Assembly (NCBI RefSeq): GCF_035594765.1
Contig: NC_085845.1
Coordinates: 140,074,897 to 140,138,896 of the forward strand
DNA: 64,000 nucleotides
Source: Anolis carolinensis
Lineage: Eukaryota
Direction of reading: 5' to 3'
Shown here: in pieces, positions 1 to 54,368 of the stretch
Position numbering within the stretch: position 1 is the first letter of the stretch
Layout: every line of letters begins with the position of its first letter
Position numbers and translations under genes: made by a program
Notes under the pieces: generated by a model
Database searches by the model: none
What the model was told of the DNA's origin: nothing
The model's input: the letters and a program-made list of their open reading frames with translations, nothing else

Positions 1-2975
1 GGCCCAAAAGAAACAAAAACAATATATCAATAAAATAGAAGAAGGAAAAAAATTTACCAAACAAAAAGAGATAGAAGAACAATTTACTAAATACTATAAA
101 CTCCTATATGCCGATAAGAAAATCCCAAAAGAAAAACCAATACAATATATAGGGAAACAAAAGATAAACAAAGTTACGGAAGAGCAAAGAGAAATATTAA
201 ATGGGAAGATTAAAGAAGAGGAAATACAAGGAGCAATTAAAAACTTACCCAACAACAAGGCACCTGGGCCAGATGGCTTTACCTCAACATATTACAAAGT
301 CTTTATATTAAAGTCTATATATTAACAATACCTCTAAAAAAAGTAATGAACAGGGCATTAGAGGAAAGACAAATACCACATACATGGAAATTTGCAAATA
401 TAACCCTAATACCAAAGGAAAATACAGACAACACAAAGTTCAAGAACCTGATTATTGATTACAAAATTTTCACAAGTATATTAGCAACCAGACTAAAAGA
501 AATATTAATAAAACGGATTGACCAAGAAGACCAGAGAGGCTTTCTACCAGGTCGACACATTAAAGATAACATCAGGACAATCATAAACGCAATTGAACAT
601 TATGATAGAAATAAGCAAAAAGAAGTTGGCTTTCTCTTCCTTGATGCAGAGAAAGTCTTCAATAAAGTCAATTGGAGTTTCATAATAGAATTGTTGAAAG
701 AAATGGACACAGGTTACTATTTCATAAATGCCATTAAAGCCATCTATTCCCATCAATATGCAAATATTATAGTTAATGGTGAAACAACAAAAGAAATTAG
801 CCTACATAAAGGAACAAGGCAGGGCTGCCCCCTCTCTCCCTTGATTTTTATCATGACTTTGGAAGTCTTACTCACAAGAATAAGGAAAAATGAAGAACTA
901 AAGAGACTGAGGGTAAAAAAGGAAAATTATAAATAATGCGCGTTTGCAGATGACGTGGTATATATAATGGAAGATCCGGCAAACCAATGGAACCAATGGT
1001 GGAGTGAACTAGAAGCTTATGGAGAGGTGGCGGGACTTAAAATTAACAAAGAAAAAACTAAAATGCTAATAAAAAACACACCAAAGGAAAAGAAAGAAGA
1101 ATTAATGAAGAAGACAGGTATTAATATTGTAAGAAAAGTAAAATATCTGGGAATAGAGTTAACACCAAGCAATGCACAACTATTAAAAAATAACTATGAC
1201 AAAAAGTGGTCCAAAATTAAGGAAAAGATGAAACGATGGGGGAAACCTCTCCCTTTTAGGAAGAATAGCTGTGATAAAAATGCAAGTTTTACCAGAAGTA
1301 CTCTATCTGTTTCAGACAATCCCAATAATAAGATCCATAGTAACAATCAACAAATGGGAGAAAGACATAAGGAATTTCATATGGAATCACAAAAAATCAA
1401 GAATAAAACATCAAAATCTGAAGGATGACAGAAGACGAGGGGGACTGGGTCTACCAGATATACAACTCTATTATGAAGCTGCTGCATTAACATGGGTTAA
1501 GGACTGGGTAACACTGGACAAGAAGAAAATCCTCACCCTGGAAGGGGAAGATCTAAGGTGAGGCTGGCATGGCTATTTATGGAAAAGCAAAGTAAAAATA
1601 GTTTTTTGTTTTTTTTAGAAATCATGTCATAAGGGCCTCACTAATCAAAATATGGAATAAATATAAGGATACACTGTATACTAAACCACCCCATGTGGTT
1701 TTCTTCAAGCGAGGCGAACCATAGAAAAGAACTCCCCAGCGACAAATGGATAACATACAAACAACTGGTAATTATCAAAAATCAAGAGGTATAATTAAAA
1801 CTGCAAGAACAATTAAAGGAACTAGACCCTACTATAAACTGGCTAAGATACTGTCAAATTAACGAAGAATTTAAAGAAGATAATAAGAAAGGCTCTCAAA
1901 TCGAAGAAACATTCTGGGATAAGATATTGAAGATAGATAATAAACTAATAAGATTAATATACAAACAACTACTCACTTGGTCAATAGAGGAAGAACAAGT
2001 AAAGGAAGTGATGGTAAAGTGGGCCAGAGAAATAGGCCACACAATCAGTATGAGCCAGTGGGAAGAAATCTGGGCCAGAAAGCTAAAATATGCATATGCA
2101 GCCGAGAACAGAGAAAATTGGTTTAAAGTTTTTTACAGGTGGTACCTGACACCGAACAAAATAGCCAAATACAACAAAGGCAAGACTGACGGGAGGTGTT
2201 GGGAATGTGAGAAAAGTATTGGCACATTCATGCATATGTGGTGGGGATGCAATAAAGTGAAGAAATTCTGGTATGAGATACATAAAACAATAGGGAAAAT
2301 TCTACAAAAAACAACTAGAATTTAAACCAGAATGTTTCTTATTAGGTATAAACAACTCACAGCTAGACCAGAATACAGACAATATACTATTTTATCTCAC
2401 CACTGCCACCAGAATAACACTAGCCCAGATTTGGAAAACCAAAGAGTTACCTACGATTGAAAAATGGACCACCAAAGTTCTGGATATAATGAACATGGAT
2501 TTGCTAACGCAAAAACTGTCTCTGAATAGAGCACCAGCTAATAGAACAGATTGGAAAGTGCTGTTAGACTATTTACAAAGAGAAAAAAAATAATGATCTG
2601 TACAAAACTAGACTAAAGAGAGCCCCAAGGAATAATTCAAATAGATATACAGATATGTATATAAGGAAGAGAGAAAAGTAAAAAAGAAAAGAATCAAAGG
2701 AGTTGCTTGAAAGCTCTGGAAGTAATAGAATATTATAGCAACACGACCTCATGTGTGGTGGGTGGATCTCCCATTCCTTTTTTTTCTTTTGCCTTTTTTG
2801 TTTTTTATTTTGTTTTTGTTTTGTTTTTTGTTGCCTTTTCTTCTCTTCCTTTCCTACTTTTGCTACTATGCATTGTTCACCCACTTTTAATGTAAGATAT
2901 AAAACAATATTGGAGAAAAAAAATAAGTTGAACAAAGTTGCTTGTAGAGTATAAATAAAAATGAATATATATAAA
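1..2975 (+). mobile_element. L1-clade LINE, 3' part of ORF2 (RT plus C-terminal CCHC zinc knuckle) and 3' UTR; inactivated
   Basis: KAPGPDGFT near 257-283; RT motifs QRGFLPGR, LDAEKVF, GTRQGCPLSP, FADD (immediately after an in-frame TAA at 934-936) and KYLGI; GGLGLP; CWEC...HMWWGC near 2197-2250. Several stops and frameshifts. T-rich 3' UTR and A-rich end near 2955-2975. Runs off the 5' edge of the window. Confidence 0.95.
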
Positions 2976-4700: not shown

Positions 4701-5289
4701 ATGATACATAAATCTAAAACAATAAAACCATAAAATTACATAGCTTTGCCATTCAGTGACATGCCTCCTCTAGCTCCTTGCCATCCCACTTTCGCCTCAT
4801 GGAGCTGGGACTGTGTTTCCCAGGCTGCCCTGCAGAACAAGCACTCCCTATAGGATGAATGACACACCCGTCAATTATGTTTTCCTCAAGGCAAAGCCAG
4901 TTGGCCAATAGGATTGTGCCATAGGATAGTCTTCTGGAAATGGCACCCAAGGCAGGCTGGGCAATGTAGCTGGAATTACCCCTTGAAGGCTATTGCCTGA
5001 GGGAACTTGTCTTGTTAAACCATCCCCTTTCATATTCCGCTCTATCTTTTATGAGGCCTCTGCGCAAAGTATGCCGAGAAGCATGCTTCTGCTCTGTGGG
5101 CCCCTCATGGAACAGCTAACAAGACATCTCTTTATTATTCTAGTTATATAGCTGCCACCTGTCTGTGAAGAGCTGAGATAAGCATCATGGCCAAGGAGTT
5201 AGTAGGAGAGAAAGACGTGTGTTCTCATTCTGTGGTTTGTTAACACTTAAACTAGTAGCTTTTTGATAATTCTGTTTTTTCTGTACCTT

Positions 5290-5942
5290 CATATAACTTT
5301 CTTCTGTTGAAATTATCCAATCCCAAACTTATATGTGCTGAAATTGAAAAAATTCTTAAAAATGGACGGATAGAATTATTGTTCTGAAACTTGGCAAGCT
5401 TGCTGTCATGCTCATATTGTCTCACTGTGCAACAGTTTGATGGGATATCTTTAGTAGTTTTAAAAAAATAATTTTTAATTGAAAAAAACTTTTAAAAATT
5501 ACTAAAAATTACTAAAATTACTAAAAATCAGTAAATGAACAGATCTTTCTGAAACTTTGCATGAATGATGTCTGTTTGTGGAGAAATTGAAGAGGATACT
5601 TCTTAAAGTTTTTTTTAATTATTTGTAAAGATTTTAAAAATTTCCTAAAAATCAATGGATGACCAAAACATTATGAAACTTGGCAGGCTTAAAGTTGTAA
5701 ATATTGCCTACAAGTGTGTTTAGTTTCATCCTGCTAACCGTAAAAATGGTGGAGAAATGAGCCTCTAAATTTTCCTCATGGCCTCCAATGGAACAAATTT
5801 TAACCAAACAATTACAAAGGTGCAGAGATTCAGATTACTAATTGAAATGGGGCCTCTCTGAATCTTTACAAAACAAAGCGGGGACCATCCAAATTTCCAA
5901 AACAAATTACTAATTGGATTTCAGCCACTTCACACACCTCTA
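5290..5942. mobile_element. Degraded non-autonomous DNA transposon (hAT-like) with internal subrepeats
   Basis: Repeated gaaacttggca / ctaaaaatca units. Composition resembles the subterminal region of the hAT at 53749-55545. Left end not found. Confidence 0.35.
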
Positions 5943-6584
5943 ATTCTAAATACCTTGTGCTCCTCCTTTGTTCAGCGCAGTCTATTGCCTTCTCCTTTGC
6001 AGTGTTGTTCTCAATGTTTTGCTTTTACTGCTTTCTTTCAGACTCAGCCTTTAGGAAGTGTTTTGATAATTACAAAAAGGAAGATATTACATGACAGACC
6101 ATTATAGCTTATCAGTAGCTGTGCAGCCCTAGTCACCTTTTCACTGTAGTGACATGGAACTCAGCCAATATTATAGACAGAAAGGGGATACAAGTTTGGG
6201 TTTAGAACTTCAGAGATTGACAAAATGTTAGGGGGGGGGGGGGGGGAGAGAGAAAGACCCAGTAAGTCATTTTGCTCCTTCCTGTCAGTGCAGGATCATG
6301 ACCTGTTGTGTCACATCTATTCTCATGCTCTGCTAAATAAAGAAGGAAAGTGGTGGGGCTTAACAATACTTTCATGGGAGAAACTATTTTGCAGTCTTTT
6401 AGGATTTGCTGCCAGGATTTTCTTTCCAAGATTACGTATCTAAATTTAACATATGTCTCACTATGATGTTACTCATTTTTCTTCCACTTTCATCTGTGTC
6501 TGCTATCTTTATGCATGAAGACGGCTAGGCACCTGCTTCCTTTGTTTGCTAGTTTGAACTTTTGAACCTGTCTTTGTTGGGTAT

Positions 6585-11103: not shown

Positions 11104-12749
11104 TGTCGCGCCCGTCAATTGGGGTTCTAAATTTGCAACCCCCTTTCTTCAGAAGCTTTGCACTCTGGTTAAGGAGAATACCCAACACAAACTGTCTCTT
11201 TAACAAAGAATAGGTTTATATAAAGGTATTTACAAATACAGCAGAGTCCTTGGATTTTTCAGCTGCTTCCACACAATGAATAGTAAACAATAAAGTCCTT
11301 ATCTTCAGCAAGATGCCACAGTCTTGTTCTTCAGACGTTGTAGCAACAATACACCTCCGGCAACTCCAACTTGGACAAAACAGCTCCAGCAACTCCACCT
11401 CAGCATTCAATCTCAGGTGCCAAACTCCAACCTCGAGCTCCAAACTCTCTCCAACCTTCAAACCTCAAGCACCAACCTTGAGTAACATAATGTACTTAGT
11501 CTCTACTTGTAGTACTCCATCTCTAACAGGTGGCTTGATTGTTGCTGGCCATACAATAAATAGTAAACAATAAAGTCCTTATCTTCAGCAAGATGCCACA
11601 GTCTTGTTCTTCAGACGTTGTAGCAACAATACACCTCCGGCAACTCCAACTTGGACAAAACAGCTCCAGCAACTCCACCTCAGCATTCAATCTCAGGTGC
11701 CAAACTCCAACCTCGAGCTCCAAACTCTCTCCAACCTTCAAACCTCAAGCACCAACCTTGAGTAACATAATGTACTTAGTCTCTACTTGTAGTACTCCAT
11801 CTCTAACAGGTGGCTTGATTGTTGCTGGCCATACAATAAATAGTAAACAATAAAGTCCTTATCTTCAGCAAGATGCCACAGTCTTGTTCTTCAGACGTTG
11901 TAGCAACAATACACCTCCGGCAACTCCAACTTGGACAAAACAGCTCCAGCAACTCCACCTCAGCATTCAATCTCAGGTGCCAAACTCCAACCTCGAGCTC
12001 CAAACTCTCTCCAACCTTCAAACCTCAAGCACCAACCTTGAGTAACATAATGTACTTAGTCTCTACTTGTAGTACTCCATCTCTAACAGGTGGCTTGATT
12101 GTTGCTGGCCATACAATAAATAGTAAACAATAAAGTCCTTATCTTCAGCAACATGCCACAGTCTTGTTCTTCAGACGTTGTAGCAACAATACACCTCCGG
12201 CAACTCCAACTTGGACAAAACAGCTCCAGCAACTCCACCTCAGCATTCAATCTCAGGTGCCAAACTCCAACCTCGAGCTCCAAACTCTCTCCAACCTTCA
12301 AACCTCAAGCACCAACCTTGAGTAACATAATGTACTTAGTCTCTACTTGTAGTACTCCATCTCTAACAGGTGGCTTGATTGTTGCTGGCCATACAATAAA
12401 TAGTAAACAATAAAGTCCTTATCTTCAGCAAGATGCCACAGTCTTGTTCTTCAGACGTCGTAGCAACAATACACCTCCGGCAACTCCAACTTGGACAAAA
12501 CAGCTCTAGCAACTCCACCTCAGCATTCAATCTCAGGTGCCAAACTCCAACCTCGAGCTCCAAACTCTCTCCAACCTTCAAACCTCAAGCACCAACCTCC
12601 TACCTTGAGTAACATAATGTACTTAGTCTCTACTAGTAGTACTCCATCTCTAACAGGTGGCTTGATTGTTGCTGGCCATACAGTGATTAGTAATGATCCT
12701 TACAATCATTTACCCATTTTCAGTTAAGAAATGATATAAACCTCTGACA
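11104..12749 (-). mobile_element. Solo LTR (TG...CA) containing a 5x 280-bp tandem array
   Basis: Termini TGTC...GACA; perfect 5-bp TSD tcatg (11099-11103, 12750-12754). Orientation inferred from strand composition only. Confidence 0.85.
11279..12682. repeat. 280-bp tandem repeat, 5 near-identical copies
   Basis: Units start at 11279, 11559, 11839, 12119 and 12399. Identical ORF calls recur every 280 bp. Only a few variants, mostly in copy 5. Confidence 0.97.
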
Positions 12750-18306: not shown

Positions 18307-19411
18307 CCCTACACCATTGACTGTACTGGCTAGAGCTGATGGAAATTTCCATTGAACAATATTGGAGAGAGGCACAGTTGCGATCATTGCATTCCATGGA
18401 TGAAATAGCATCATTGATAGAATGTTCTGTTTTACCTCTCCTGTCTTCTAGAACAGCTTACTGCATTCGCTATTCAGAATAGAAACAACAGTGAAGGAGG
18501 CAATAGTAATTATGTTCATGCTCCCTTCTGTTATGAACTCATTCATTTTACAGTCATTATTAAAAGATTAGAAAAAATACCAGTGACATTTGATTATGAC
18601 TTTGGCATGGAGAGGGAATTGTTTTAGAGTGGCTAGTATTTTGTTATTGTTATTCAGATTCTTTAGTGACAAGACAGTGACTATCTGATACTATGAATAC
18701 AGTTATCAATACATATTGAGAGTATATGTTGACTGCTAATGAGCTTCCTCAGCCCAGCTTGCCTCCTCCCTTTCTTCCCCCTTATCTGGCGCCCTCGGTG
18801 TACCATTTGTTTCACTTTCCTCCACTCTTGCCTGGGGAAATGAAGGATATTTTTTTTTCCAAAATAGAGTTTTTATTTATTCCTCAGTGTTTAAAGGCCC
18901 TGTGGGCATTTGTCTCCTACCTGAGTTAATGTGCTGTAATGATCTGCTCCTGCCATCCATTCCTCTCCCTATCAATCAAGGAGAAAAAATGCTGATTGCG
19001 AGGACTGCTAATAAGACCTAAGAGGAGGCCAGTTCACATGAGTGCGGTGTGCCAACTTGCTTTGTTTTTCAGGCAGCTCTGCCTGTAATTGGGAGCCAGG
19101 CACCAGACATGCCTGAGTGTTGCACAGCCAGGGTCCTGCCAATCTCCTTCTTTAAGAAGGCAAACCAACAGCTTTATCTATGGCAGTGACATCTTTTGTT
19201 TTACCCTTCTGGTTGTGGCAATCTGAATCTACCCACTGCATTGGCTAGCAGTTGATTAAAGCTCTAGAAAACCCCGACAACAGGAGTTGACAATATATGG
19301 CCCTTTAGCACCTGTTGGACTGTAGTTATTACCAAGCCTAGCCAGCAGGTGAGACATAATGGAAGTTGCAGTCAACACGCTCAATACCCACACTTGCCAT
19401 ATACAATTACC

Positions 19412-20288
19412 TGTTACACCCCAAGGTTGCGAGGGCACCTTGAAAACCACACTGGAGCCAGGATCATAAGCAAAGCGGTTTATTGAAGGATATATAAATG
19501 CAAGCAAATAGCGCTAAAAGTCAATAGAGAGAATAGTCCATAATATATTGTCCTTAACTGTTCAAAAGCAAGTCCAATAAAGTCTTTCAATATTGTAATC
19601 CACAAACAGAACTCGTTAGTTCTACCAAGAAGCCAGAGTTAGTCTGTAAACGCTGTCAAAACAGGATCAGCCAAAAGTTGCAAGGAACAGGAACAAGACA
19701 CTGGAAATCCATAAACTATAATCCACATGGAAAGCAACCACTTAGGAGTCATAGAACCGAGGTTAACAAGGCAAGGTATACTCGAGAGTCACAAGGCATG
19801 AACTCGGCTTGGAAGTCATGAAGCAAGGTATGGGAACAAGGCAAGGAGCAAGGTACTGGAACATACATTCTTCTTCCATGGATGGCAAAGTTGACACCTC
19901 AGTGAGAACAGGAAGCAAGGCACCTTTAAGGAGTTTTCAGGGCTACAAGGCAGTGAGAGTTAGGACCCACAGAATTTCACATGGGAAAGTTAGTCATTAG
20001 TGTGCCTGAGAGCCAAGCGCTGACTTCGTCTCACACCCTCCCTTCAACCCCTTTCTTTCACAAAAGATCCTCTCCGATCAAAAGCAACATCCTCCCCTGC
20101 AACAACATCTGGTGAAACCAACCTTGACTGAGCATCGGAATGTTCTCCAATTAACGGATCCTCTGTAAGCACAACTTCGGGCACCTGCAAAGCCATTGGG
20201 CTTTGGTTCAAATCCTGGATGGGCCTGAAATCCGAATCAGACTCTGATTCAAATTCCATCTCCTGAGGAAGGGCAGATCGTGACAACA
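19412..20288 (-). mobile_element. Solo LTR (877 bp) with an acidic ORF remnant in U3
   Basis: TGTT...AACA termini; perfect 5-bp TSD ttacc (19407-11, 20289-93); AATAAA on the minus strand at about 19478-19483. Confidence 0.9.
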
Positions 20289-21311
20289 TTACCTTTGTGT
20301 AAGGACATTATTATACAGGGCAAGCAAACCAGCACTGCTGCTAGATATTCAGTTTTGGGTATTGTCCCTATTTCACAATTTCATGCGTATTATGCCTGTG
20401 GTCTACCTCCTACCTGTGATTATCCTGTTCCTAGCAAAAAATAGGTAAAACCAATCAACAACTCCTAATCCCACAATTTTCCTGCCACTTAACTTGGTGC
20501 GATGGGTCACTTCTTTTTCTGTGCTGTTATGCTGGCTATGAAATGACATCAGGGGTGGGATCCTTATCTCCCGCCCCCTTCGCACTTTTCCCAAGATGTC
20601 CATTTTATGTTTATTTCACATCTTATTATATTTGCCTTTTTTGTTTTTCAAAGCTGAAATTTCAGAATTGCTCTAAAATAAAAAAATAAACATTAAAAAA
20701 AACTACAGAAGTCATACAGGTAGGTGGGATTAGCAGAGTATATATAAATATGATCACAGGACCATAAATTGGCAAATTCCATAATTTCAGAATTGTAGGG
20801 GCGGGGCATGATATCAAGGGTACTGAATTGGGTATGTATCCACTATCAGTGATAGCACAACTGTAGTGGAATAGTGAGTATGTGCAATGAAATTCATGGT
20901 CTTAAGTCTGAATTGGATACAAACCAAGTGGATCATTTGAAGAAATACTCGTGACTTGTGTTCACTATATTTTAATCTTTGATCTGTGTATTTTATATAT
21001 GTATTTGTAGAAATACCTTTTAATATATGCATTTTATAATGCATATGATGATTGATTATGTGTTTTAGCTATGTTGTAACCTGCCTTGAGCCATGAGAAG
21101 GGTAAGAAATAAAATTATCACCATCACCACCACCACGTTTTGGTTCCATTCAATTCAGTGAAACAAATGAATCATAGTGGATTTATTCAGAGGAAGTTTG
21201 TGATTGCTTTTGTCTAAAGCTGAGAGAATGTGATTTGCCTAAAGACACTGCATTGGTTGTATGGTGAATTCAAACCATGGTCTCCAGAGTTGTAGTCCAA
21301 TATGCAAACTG

Positions 21312-26777: not shown

Positions 26778-27958
26778 TGTCATAGACAGAACGCCACCAA
26801 ATAGAGTACAACACAGTTTATTGAGGTTACAGAACTAAAAAATGCCCGTAGGAAACAAAGGACTAGGCAAACACTTGTCTTCAGTGTGAAAAGTAACAGA
26901 AACAGCTTCGTTTGAATTAAAACGGTTCGAAAGAATAAACCGGATTTAACAGGAGTTTAATCCGGATTAAATCAAAAGTGCTTACTTCAGCCTGGCAATT
27001 TAAACAAGCAAAAGTTGGTAAACAGAGGTCAAAATGAACACAAAAAACTGGCAGCAGATTCCTCTCTGCTACTCAAAAGCTACAGATGAGTAACTCAGGC
27101 TGTTTACTCTTCCGTGCAACGAGCGAAATCCAGGTCCAGGCACATCAATCAGGGTAACGGCGGTCAGCAGGGTCCCAATCCGGTCCAAGGTCGAAAGCCA
27201 AGCGCAGACGTCTAAAGTTCCACAAGTTCCACCGATAGCCACAGAAGGGATAGTCCAAGGTCGTAGTCAGTCAGTCAGTCCAGCGTCAATCCAGAGTAGG
27301 TAATTAATGTCCGTCAAAAAGACGACGGAGGTCCAAGCTATCAAGATTAAACACAAGTTGCACAGAAAAACCCCACACAGTTCCTCCCGCCGTCTATGCC
27401 CAGTGTCCTTGGTAACTTACGTATCCAGCAACGAATCACACCCGTCTTCAGGAAGTTCCCCAACAAGAGCCCAAGCGTTCGTCCAGATTACCTTGCCCAA
27501 CGCAATTAGCCATTGATCCTAAACCCCATTTTATCCCAGTTCATAACTCCTCATCGCTGTCAGCTGCTATCCTAATTCCAGGTGCCTCATCATCATCATC
27601 CTCATCAGAACTAAAACACCTTTGACTACGCCCCACAGCATCCCCAGCTGTGGATCCCGCTCCATCCCTCCAGCCCGTCCATGGGTCTGATCCTGCAACC
27701 CGCCAATCGTCTCCCATACTATCATTGCCGGTGACACCCAAATCCTCCCTTACACGAGTCCACTCCATGTCATCCTCCTCTGAGCTAACCATCTCTTCCT
27801 CCATTCGCTCGGTAAAACCCTCAAATGAGTCTTCATCTGTTGGTTCTGCAAATAAGTCCCGGAGCCGTTTCCTTTCGCGCTCCTCAAAAGAGTCTGACTC
27901 TCGAGGAGTCTTACGACCCCGTCTCCTAGTATCGGAGCCAGAAGGCTCAACCATAACA
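26778..27958 (-). mobile_element. Solo LTR (1181 bp), same family as 36021-37256
   Basis: Minus strand TGTTATGG...CTATGACA; TSD tcacc / ccacc; AATAAA near its 3' end; colinear with the second copy. Confidence 0.93.
27541..27954 (-). CDS. LTR U3-encoded acidic protein (137 aa) with an FxGF motif; probable retroelement Pol/integrase tail or accessory ORF
   Basis: ATG at LTR position 5; intact and homologous to 36025-36453 with mainly synonymous differences. The upstream MEFQVYTINLG of the ORF track is flanking host DNA. Confidence 0.65.
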   Translation of the reverse strand: MVEPSGSDTRRRGRKTPRESDSFEERERKRLRDLFAEPTDEDSFEGFTERMEEEMVSSEEDDMEWTRVREDLGVTGNDSMGDDWRVAGSDPWTGWRDGAGSTAGDAVGRSQRCFSSDEDDDDEAPGIRIAADSDEEL

Positions 27959-31915: not shown

Positions 31916-33072
31916 ACCCGGGATCTTTACGTCCCTTTCTGAAGGTTCTCAAGGCCAAGGTGTTCCCCATTGCTTTGTATGGAGCTGAAATATGGGGGGA
32001 TCAAGATCTGGCATTGGTAGAAAGATTCCAACTTCGCCACTTGAAAATTGGCTTAGGTGTGGAGAGATCATCCCTGTCAGCTGCTGTGAGAGCAGAGATG
32101 GGGGTACCCCCAATTTCCACAGTAATCCTGAAGAGACAGATCAATTGGTGGTACAAAATAAGACAAATGTAACCACATAGACTCCCAGCCATATGCCTAT
32201 TAGAACAAGAAAACCACAAAGAGTGGTCATCATGGCTAAGCAGACTTGGTCACACGGTCAGCAAGATAGGTTTTGCCCCACACGAGCTAATAAATTTCGG
32301 GGCTAAAGTGTGCTCAATTGTATACCAAAGAGCCCTTGACATTGCTGCACAAAATGATCTTATGATCATAGCGCAAGCTAGAGCCACTCCATACCTGGCC
32401 AAATTTAAATGCAATGTGGGCATGGAAACTTACCTCTTCTTGACTCTTCCATTATATATTAGAAAACTTTTTACTCGGGCTAGATTCGATCAGCTCGACA
32501 TTAAGTCCAAGCTAGGAAGACATCAGAATATCCCCTATATGCAGAGAACCTGTGGGTGTCGTGAGGTAGATGCAGAAGTGGAGGACTCAGAACATTTCTT
32601 CTTAAAATGCCCCTACTGCACCAGGATTCGATCTCTCTATTTAGACCCTCTGCTGGAGAATCATACTCACTTAGAGAATGAGGAGAAATTGCATATCTTT
32701 CTACAGGGTTCAGATAAAAACTCAATTTTAAAACTGGCCCCTTTTACACAAAAAGCGCTGGCCATTCGTGAGAAGATGAAAGCTGAGAGCTGATACATTA
32801 TTGCCACTAACAAAATCCAAACTTAAAATTTACTATGGACAAGACACTTGTTTTACTTACCCCTGTCCTTGTTCAAACCTTTCCTTAGGAAATTACTAAT
32901 TTTAACCTTTTTACTCTGTATTTGTCTAGGAGCGGGTTATTAGGCTGCAGGTCGGGATGTTTTGTATCTTTACATGGTTTTATTGTGCGTAAGTGTGTAC
33001 GTATTGTATGTTTTACATGTTTTGATATGGTCAAAAGTGACTAATTAATAAAGAATTGTTGTTGTTGCTTCT
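31916..33072 (+). mobile_element. RTEX-like LINE 3' fragment
   Basis: VFPIALYGAEIWG and C-terminal RTCGC...EVEDSEHFFLKCPY; (TTG)n tail after AATAAA; 13-bp TSD tcaatttggattt (31903-15, 33073-85); internal stop at 32170-72. Confidence 0.85.
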
Positions 33073-36020: not shown

Positions 36021-37256
36021 TGTTATGGTTGAGCCTTCGGGCTCCGATAATAGAAGAAGGGGGTATAAGACTCCTCGAGAGTCAGACTCTTTCGAGGAGC
36101 GTGAACGAAAACGGCTCCGGGATTTGTTTACAGACCCGACAGATGAGGACTCATTTGAGGGTTTTTCTGAGGGTTTGGAGGAAGAGATGGCCAGCTCGGA
36201 GGAGGATGACATGGAATGGACTCGTGTGAGGGAGGATTTGGGTGTTGGGGAAACAGGCAATGAAAGCATGGGAGGTGAGTGGCGGGTTGCAGGATCAGAC
36301 CCATGGACTGGCTGGAGGGATGGAGCGGGATCCACAGCTGGGGATGCTGTGGGGCGTAGTCAAAGGTGCTTTAGCTCTGATGAGGATGATGAGTTTGGGG
36401 CGCCTGGAATTGGGATGGCAGCTGACAGCGATGATGAGCTTGAACTGGGATAAATTGGGGTTTGGGATCAATGTCTAATTGCGTTGGGCAAGGTAATCTG
36501 GACGGACGCTTGGGCTTTTGTTGGGGAACTTCCTGAAGACGGGTGTGATTCGTTGCTGGATACGTAAGTTTACCAAGGACACTGGGCATCGACGGCGGGA
36601 GGAACTGTGCGGGGTTTTTCTCTGTGCAACTTGTGTTTAATCTCAATAGCTTGGACCTCCGTCATCTTTTTGACGGGCAATACCTACTCACACTGGATTG
36701 ACGCTGGACTGACTGACTTCGATTCTGGATTATCCCTTCTGCTGCTTATCGGTGAGACCTTTGGATTCCTAGACGACTACGTTTGGCTATTGACCTCTGG
36801 ACCGGATTGGGACCCTGCTGACTGCCGTTTCCCTGACTGCTGAGCCTGGACCTGTATATCGTTGGCTGTTGAACCTTAAATTGAATCCTGACTACGACCA
36901 CGTTTTCCTTCGCTGCAGCGAGGAATAAACAAGCCTGGTTTAGTCTCCAGCTGTTTCTGAGTAGCAGAGAGGAATCTGCTACCAGTCTGTTGTTTACATT
37001 CTGACTCCTGTTGATCCTCCTTTGTTTGCATTGTTTGCCAGGCTGAAGTAAGCACTTTTGATTTAATCCGGATTATACTTCTGTTTAACCCGGTTTTTCT
37101 CTTTGAGTTGTTTAAGCTCAATCTGAGTTGTTTTTGTGTTACCTATCACACTGAAGTCAAGTGTTTGCCCTGTTCTTTGTCTCCTATGGGCATTTTTAGT
37201 TCTGTAATCTCAATAAACTGAGTTTTGCTTTACTCACTGGCGTTCTGTCTATGACA
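36021..37256 (+). mobile_element. Solo LTR (1236 bp)
   Basis: TGTTATGG...CTATGACA; perfect 5-bp TSD tgact (36016-20, 37257-61); AATAAA at 37212-17. Confidence 0.95.
36025..36453 (+). CDS. LTR U3-encoded acidic protein (142 aa) with a basic NLS-like patch and an LxxLF-acidic-FxGF motif
   Basis: Intact ORF from LTR position 5; homologous to 27541-27954; the only internal indel is an in-frame 6-nt event. Confidence 0.65.
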   Translation: MVEPSGSDNRRRGYKTPRESDSFEERERKRLRDLFTDPTDEDSFEGFSEGLEEEMASSEEDDMEWTRVREDLGVGETGNESMGGEWRVAGSDPWTGWRDGAGSTAGDAVGRSQRCFSSDEDDEFGAPGIGMAADSDDELELG

Positions 37257-53974: not shown

Positions 53975-54085
53975 CAAAAGGGGCGTCACGGGCTCAGCCA
54001 ATGGGAGGGGGCGAGGGGGAAGGAGGCCGAGGAGGAGGAGGAAGACGGAGGGGAAAAATGGCCGCCGCCGCCTCGCCTCAGCTCA
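53975..54085 (+). promoter_or_regulatory. CpG-island-type promoter cassette inside the hAT element
   Basis: CGTCA at 53984-88, AGCCAATGGG (CCAAT 53998-54002), GC box at about 54008-17, YY1-like AAAATGGCCGCC overlapping ATG-GCC-GCC-GCC. Confidence 0.5.
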
Positions 54086-54089
54086 GGCC

Positions 54090-54368
54090 TGATACTCAGA
54101 GGTTTCCACGTCTGTGCGAAGCTAGGCAAGTGGGGTTTATATATCTGTGGAAGGTCCAGGGTGGGAGAAAGAACTCTTGTCTGTGGGAGGCAAGTGTGAA
54201 TGTTGCAATTGGTCACCTTGATTAGCATTGAATAGCCTTGCAGCTTCAAAGCCTGGCTGCTTCCTACCTGGGGGAATCCTTTGTTGGGAGGTATTAGCTG
54301 GCCCTGATTGTTTCCTGTCTGGAATTCCCATTTTCTGGGTGTTGTTCTTTTACTGTCCTGATTTTAGC
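54090..54368 (-). mobile_element. Penelope-like element 3' UTR/pLTR fragment
   Basis: Minus strand ctaaaatcaggacagtaaa...gggaattccagacaggaaacaatcagggccagcta...gatatataaaccccacttgcctag recalls the Anolis Penelope consensus. Confidence 0.7.

Follow-up and report, generated by a model that had tools for sequence, protein, structure and literature searches.

Two copies of a long terminal repeat (LTR) in a 64,000-nucleotide stretch of the Anolis carolinensis genome (hereafter, the window) encode a short peptide resembling the motif by which host proteins bind LEDGF. Which protein carries this motif, and what might it do there? Both copies are solo LTRs of ~1.2 kb, as established by their TG..CA ends and target duplications. 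The first (36021..37256, + strand; subfamily A of a Tf1/sushi-type Ty3/gypsy family) is flanked by the 5-bp duplication TGACT. It sits inside a SINE-like repeat, presumably a Sauria SINE, of which other copies occur elsewhere in the window. The second (26778..27958, - strand; subfamily B of the same family) is flanked by GGTGG/GGTGA (4/5 match); the two LTRs showed 82% identity across 1243 columns. Translation confirmed that the motif is present in both, as LRDLFTDPTDEDSFEGF at 36115..36165 (+) and LRDLFAEPTDEDSFEGF at 27814..27864 (-). It lies in an open frame of 142 codons (36025..36453, +) in the first copy and of 137 codons (27541..27954, -) in the second. The motif of the first copy consists of a predicted hydrophobic helix (LRDLF), an 8-residue acidic linker with a CK2-type Thr (36139-36141), and FEGF. 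The basic patch reported ahead of it in the initial annotation was found immediately upstream, as RKR at 36106..36114 (+), where the predicted helix begins; it is a putative NLS. Further downstream are a TATA-like element that overlaps the stop codon of the frame and may belong to a promoter (36448..36456, +), an 11-nt self-primer that pairs with the primer-binding site of full-length copies (36481..36491, +), and the polyadenylation signal AATAAA near the LTR 3′ end (37212..37217, +). An exact 21-mer from the LTR had 4,080 matches in the genome; a control had 0.

The window contains several other features. What is probably a third solo LTR, belonging to another family, is located at about 19400-20290 (-), with an acidic frame that continues past a stop to RRSQRL. 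At 11269-12688, a 280-bp unit is repeated five times in tandem, with 99% identity among four of the repeats. Pieces of reverse transcriptase frames of the non-LTR type occur at 346-2325 (+), 32308-32922 and 41220-41834, the last two forming an inverted pair that is 86% alike. A GC-rich frame at 54001-54225 (+), beginning MAAAASPQLRP, is possibly a first exon, and had no convincing Pfam match.

In full-length copies, the frame proved to be the end of Pol. The SH3 domain and the LTR frame were in one reading frame across the polypurine tract, together with Gag and Pol, in four of four paired-LTR copies; these had been chosen solely by the presence of two LTRs 5-6 kb apart, blind to frame. In 10 copies selected for long frames, the Pol frame spanned 1119-1219 codons without interruption and ended at the LTR stop. 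Because the polypurine tract does not break the Pol frame, which goes on into the 3′ LTR, the motif belongs to the C-terminal tail of integrase, and the frame at 36025..36453 corresponds to the last 142 residues of that protein. In Pol numbering, the LTR-derived Met has number 1078, and the motif spans 1108-1124. Pfam analysis of full-length Pol revealed protease, reverse transcriptase, RNase H, integrase and a Tf2-type SH3 domain (989-1045), in PR-RT-RH-IN order, and only 32 residues separate SH3 from the LTR. No chromodomain (PF00385) was detected in Pol at E 0.1. Relatives P0003, P0316, P0339 and P0129 carry Chromo at the corresponding position; by sequence comparison, the motif tail occupies the slot where relatives have their chromodomain.

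Of 14 full-length copies examined, 13 had a recognizable primer-binding site, and in 11 of the 13 the LTR contained its complement. The complement was at LTR offset 455-461 in 9 correctly anchored copies, and the complementarity survives a base change in subfamily C. Self-priming is described as a hallmark of the Tf1/sushi group (PMC6317226, accessible part). In our tree, from which Sushi-ichi and Tf1 were absent, the family fell in a clade with squamate chromodomain elements (support 100/100). The domain order, SH3 domain, self-priming and grouping with vertebrate chromoviruses establish a Tf1/sushi-type Ty3/gypsy element. It shares with Tf1/sushi (V-clade) chromoviruses Gag followed by Pol, the SH3/GPY-F domain and the 5-bp target duplication; it differs from them in having an LTR-encoded tail with a motif like TIMs (TND-interacting motifs; TND, TFIIS N-terminal domain) and no chromodomain after SH3, and thus falls outside the strict definition of a chromovirus. 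In one copy (L034, about 5250-6100), an LTR resembling that of the chromodomain family is apparently inserted within integrase.

We compared real copies from the four subfamilies, which are close to one another, for signs of selection. dN/dS of the LTR-encoded tail was 0.14-0.24 in 6 of 6 subfamily pairs. For the 17-codon motif it was 0.05-0.09 in the 4 unsaturated pairs (2 were saturated), similar to the SH3 domain (0.04-0.09). Neutrality was rejected for the tail (p 1e-7 and 1e-9) and for the motif (p 4e-5), and the excess of silent over amino-acid states was greatest in windows covering the basic helix and motif. These codon comparisons indicate that the tail is under purifying selection. 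An 8-residue acidic linker with [ST]-D-E-[DE] is present in all four subfamilies, in agreement with the CK2-type site proposed for the linker Thr, which is a prediction from sequence. A candidate fifth subfamily, P0283, was rejected since it appears to be a frameshifted copy. Among 30 copies picked by an upstream 21-mer, L-x-x-[LI]-F and FxGF were unchanged in all 30, and the linker site was Thr in 16 and Ser in 14, with no other residue; these copies are young, so their constancy adds little. At 110 loci, a tail could be parsed in 109 cases; all of these, again from young copies, had FEGF. In the comparison named initially as a refuting check, the motif was not significantly more conserved than the remainder of the tail (Fisher p 0.27; second test p 0.078), invariant residues numbered 12 of 17 in the motif and 22 of 30 upstream, and the RKR patch was conserved to the same degree as the motif.

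According to the available text of PMC9987994, a TIM joins a helix to an acidic linker 8-16 residues long and may also include FxGF; FxGF is carried by all LEDGF/HRP2 TIM partners known there, and many TIMs rely on the helix alone. The M1 motif of JPO2/CDCA7L (PDB 6EMO) and other TIMs share with the lizard motif the predicted hydrophobic helix, the acidic linker (8 residues) with a CK2-type Ser/Thr, and FxGF. The JPO2 motif given in the initial annotation was confirmed from 6EMO: at the same spacing, subfamilies A-D are identical to human M1 at 7, 7, 11 and 9 of 17 residues. When the window peptide was searched against PDB sequences, the matches were limited to 5 de novo proteins (E 0.066 at best), JPO2 not being among them. 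The anole LEDGF domain is identical to the human one at 88 of 99 positions, as counted from the alignment. The lizard motif differs from JPO2 in being borne by a retrotransposon integrase, its binding being predicted, and in its flanks, which match the lizard CDCA7L exon at 12-16 of 60 nt. Because the flanking DNA shows no likeness to this exon, mimicry is likelier than recent capture. We rejected recent capture on the random identity of the flanks and on codons shared at 3 of 11 identical residues in subfamily C; the motif may be an old capture from CDCA7L. In the same survey, CDCA7L-like lizard exons were observed at L149:8402-8452, with an M1 that matches 6EMO, and near L150 position 2221, with M2. 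An intronless PSIP1-like copy (L089:1474-2049) with a stop within the integrase-binding domain is probably a processed pseudogene.

A complex model of the motif with anole LEDGF, as proposed initially, scored 0.34, at the mark, versus 0.01 for the best of 3 controls. Runs shared at least 85% of contacts, with no alignment used; at a partner pLDDT of 57-58, the helix stays a prediction. In calibration, scores of 0.60 or less were obtained by 5 of 78 solved complexes and by all 4 passing mismatches (of 180), so that a low pass is more often wrong than right unless binding is likely beforehand; the score is uncalibrated for peptides. Similar complexes have already been solved (6EMO), and the score may thus reflect memory. 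Read in this way, the model is weakly suggestive of LEDGF binding.

An explanation of the motif starts from a tail that is in frame with Pol, stands where no chromodomain is present, is under purifying selection and resembles JPO2, and from a conserved host domain. We suggest that the tail is retained on mature integrase. CK2 would phosphorylate the linker Ser/Thr and raise affinity, and the helix and FxGF would occupy two pockets of the LEDGF/HRP2 domain. The LEDGF PWWP domain would then determine the target, the intasome being tethered to transcribed chromatin. We hold this sequence of events to be somewhat better than an even bet. The same motif evidence would apply if the tail bound LEDGF/HRP2 for chromatin retention or stability, for stimulation of strand transfer or for transcription of new copies, with no part in site choice. 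This second reading agrees with the density of the 21-mer marker in the first 45 Mb of C1 (100 matches), which is the same as the genome-wide average of 2.2 per Mb. It also agrees with excerpts of PMC7561263, which speak against the tether: anole Gypsy insertions, taken together, were consistent with no insertion preference and were rarer in gene-dense regions of high recombination, although families were pooled in that analysis and selection masks insertion preference. However, the motif lies at the targeting-domain position of Ty1, Ty5 and CRM elements, in place of a chromodomain, and we consider a role unconnected with targeting unlikely, if still credible. A comparison of copy counts on micro- and macrochromosomes was dropped; it drew on the best 150 candidates only, with ties weighted to early contigs.

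Alternatively, the likeness may be due to chance, FEGF happening to occur in an acidic disordered tail that is conserved because of its charge or a role in nuclear import or particle assembly. The tail is acidic and of low complexity, 2 of 2 LTR-encoded tails had 0 Pfam families, an atlas search with the tail gave no match at 0.9, and conservation extends, as described, over the entire tail. The strict helix/acidic/FxGF pattern was written after the motif had been seen, and plain FxGF appeared in 0.8-1.9% of anole tail shuffles. Against this, the strict pattern occurred in 0 of 20,000 shuffles and the JPO2 spacing is exact; in the six-frame translation of the window (127,996 residues), the pattern was found at these two sites only. 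Of 336 proteins retrieved, 34 had the pattern, and each of these belongs to the present family, the P0339 cluster or P0129; the pattern recurs in a dissimilar sequence context in a second clade. In 148 post-SH3 tails of diverse relatives, FxGF was absent from 146; the two positives were P0129 and P0130, the latter without an acidic linker and failing the strict pattern. A second set of 123 tails had FxGF in 11. TIM-like motifs accounted for 5 of these (two from anole, three from Podarcis) and duplicated reverse transcriptase for 4; the other 2 were unrelated. We therefore regard chance as improbable. The initial call of a TIM-like motif is upheld by the JPO2 spacing, purifying selection and recurrence in a second retrotransposon clade, with weak support from the model.

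In P0339 (Podarcis) two TIM-like motifs in tandem follow the chromodomain, and in P0129 the motif is also located after the chromodomain. The x of FxGF varies (R/W/Q) in 10 of 12 members of the P0339 cluster that retain the tail. The tandem pair of P0339 and P0399-P0408 (Podarcis muralis), an arrangement as in JPO2, appears to lie 5′ of the polypurine tract, as judged from protein only. P0339, P0129 and P0130 form a separate clade (100/100). The best tree requires 2 motif changes, and 0% of 200 bootstrap trees require 1; a larger tree was built by a quick method. A single origin of the motif is disfavored by the best tree, yet one clade survived the AU test (p 0.105, with 17 rows, of which two were less than half filled). 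A search of the anole genome for the Podarcis-type lineage returned chromodomain-family copies, at ~40% identity. Tails of the anole chromodomain family had FxGF in 0 of 61 and HMGN-like RRSxR[ILV] in 56 of 61; the HMGN acidic-patch motif is given as RRSARLSA in the accessible part of PMC12487698. The tail position therefore houses host-like chromatin motifs. Chromodomain relatives (L156-L215; P0003, P0316) were also seen to enter the 3′ LTR, via the same GDSVM junction as the motif family, and to end in RRSARI or RRSARL.

A third reading keeps the TIM and changes the partner: IWS1, TFIIS, Elongin A, MED26, PNUTS or another TND protein would read the tail via its helix and its acidic linker. 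Constraint on the helix and on the basic stretch ahead of it is as strong as that on FxGF, and helix-only TIMs are many (excerpts of PMC9987994). However, FxGF is described there as special to LEDGF/HRP2 ligands, it is present in all four subfamilies and the second clade, and JPO2 is the closest match. We rate this reading a little lower still than chance.

The initial annotation took the frame to be a stand-alone U3 protein, a premise overturned by the full-length copies, in which it is the integrase C-terminus; the idea of a role in integration is thereby strengthened. The position of the self-primer suggests a transcription start near 36481, after the stop codon at 36453. With the start downstream, the frame would be U3, made as the Pol end from the 3′ LTR. 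Solo LTRs likely never express it, and the window copies would be non-coding relics. Contigs of 4 runs, whose RNA nature is a guess, covered 30 of 30 bins, one spanning the integrase-LTR junction, and contained no GT..AG joint, a pattern that is neutral as to expression. That the LTR ATG starts an independent protein of 142 residues, in solo LTRs included, is very hard to credit: most copies among the matches listed have an open frame, with an ATG 4 nt into the LTR, but the start site set by the self-primer is about 30 nt 3′ of the stop codon, the ATG is part of a conserved LTR end found also in the chromodomain family, and open frames are a consequence of young age.

The preferred reading, an integrase tail that tethers the intasome through LEDGF/HRP2, was compared with known systems. 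Lentiviral integrase contacts LEDGF through folded domains. The lizard Ty3/gypsy element differs in using a linear, host-type motif in a presumably disordered tail, with the same predicted host domain and the same predicted outcome. In lentiviruses, LEDGF/HRP2 tethering leads to integration into active gene bodies (PMC9987994, accessible part). Judged from the peptide, the element is likely convergent with lentiviruses on LEDGF/HRP2, but via the host's own linear motif. Ty5 (TD-Sir4), Ty1 (TD-AC40) and MLV (integrase-BET) also have short tether motifs at the integrase C-terminus, that of Ty5 being phospho-regulated; their tethers are proven and have other host partners, whereas that of the lizard element is predicted (available text of PMC7459421). 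Ty3 tethering resembles LEDGF binding in topology only (bioRxiv 2021.07.27.453949, in excerpt). In plant CRM group A, the coding region likewise runs into the 3′ LTR; its CR motif is unrelated, with an unknown partner, and belongs to centromeric elements of another clade, whereas the lizard element is of the vertebrate sushi type and its candidate partner can be named (excerpts of PMC3059260). The accessible part of PMC3601003 makes no mention of any Anolis element or LTR ORF, and our search of the open-licence literature, with Repbase and subscription papers outside its scope, found no report of a TIM in any retrotransposon. What is likely new is a predicted integrase targeting tail with a LEDGF-type TIM, tail tethers as such being already known.

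LEDGF tethering has been regarded as a lentivirus speciality, and target choice by vertebrate LTR retrotransposons is poorly known. The partly LTR-encoded integrase tail of squamate sushi-type elements is possibly a swappable slot, an idea to which we give rather less than even weight: it would hold an HMGN-like acidic-patch motif in chromodomain families or a LEDGF-binding TIM, the TIM having arisen perhaps on two occasions, with decay or loss of the chromodomain. Here the host partner is predicted from sequence, and one genome contains thousands of young copies together with a co-active chromodomain family as an internal control; the idea is therefore testable from existing population data. 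If it is true, a non-viral element has independently reached the HIV integration cofactor, and LTR U3 DNA doubles as a targeting coding module in vertebrates, as in plant CRM elements. A heterochromatin reader would then have been swapped for an active-gene tether in a family that is still spreading in wild anoles.
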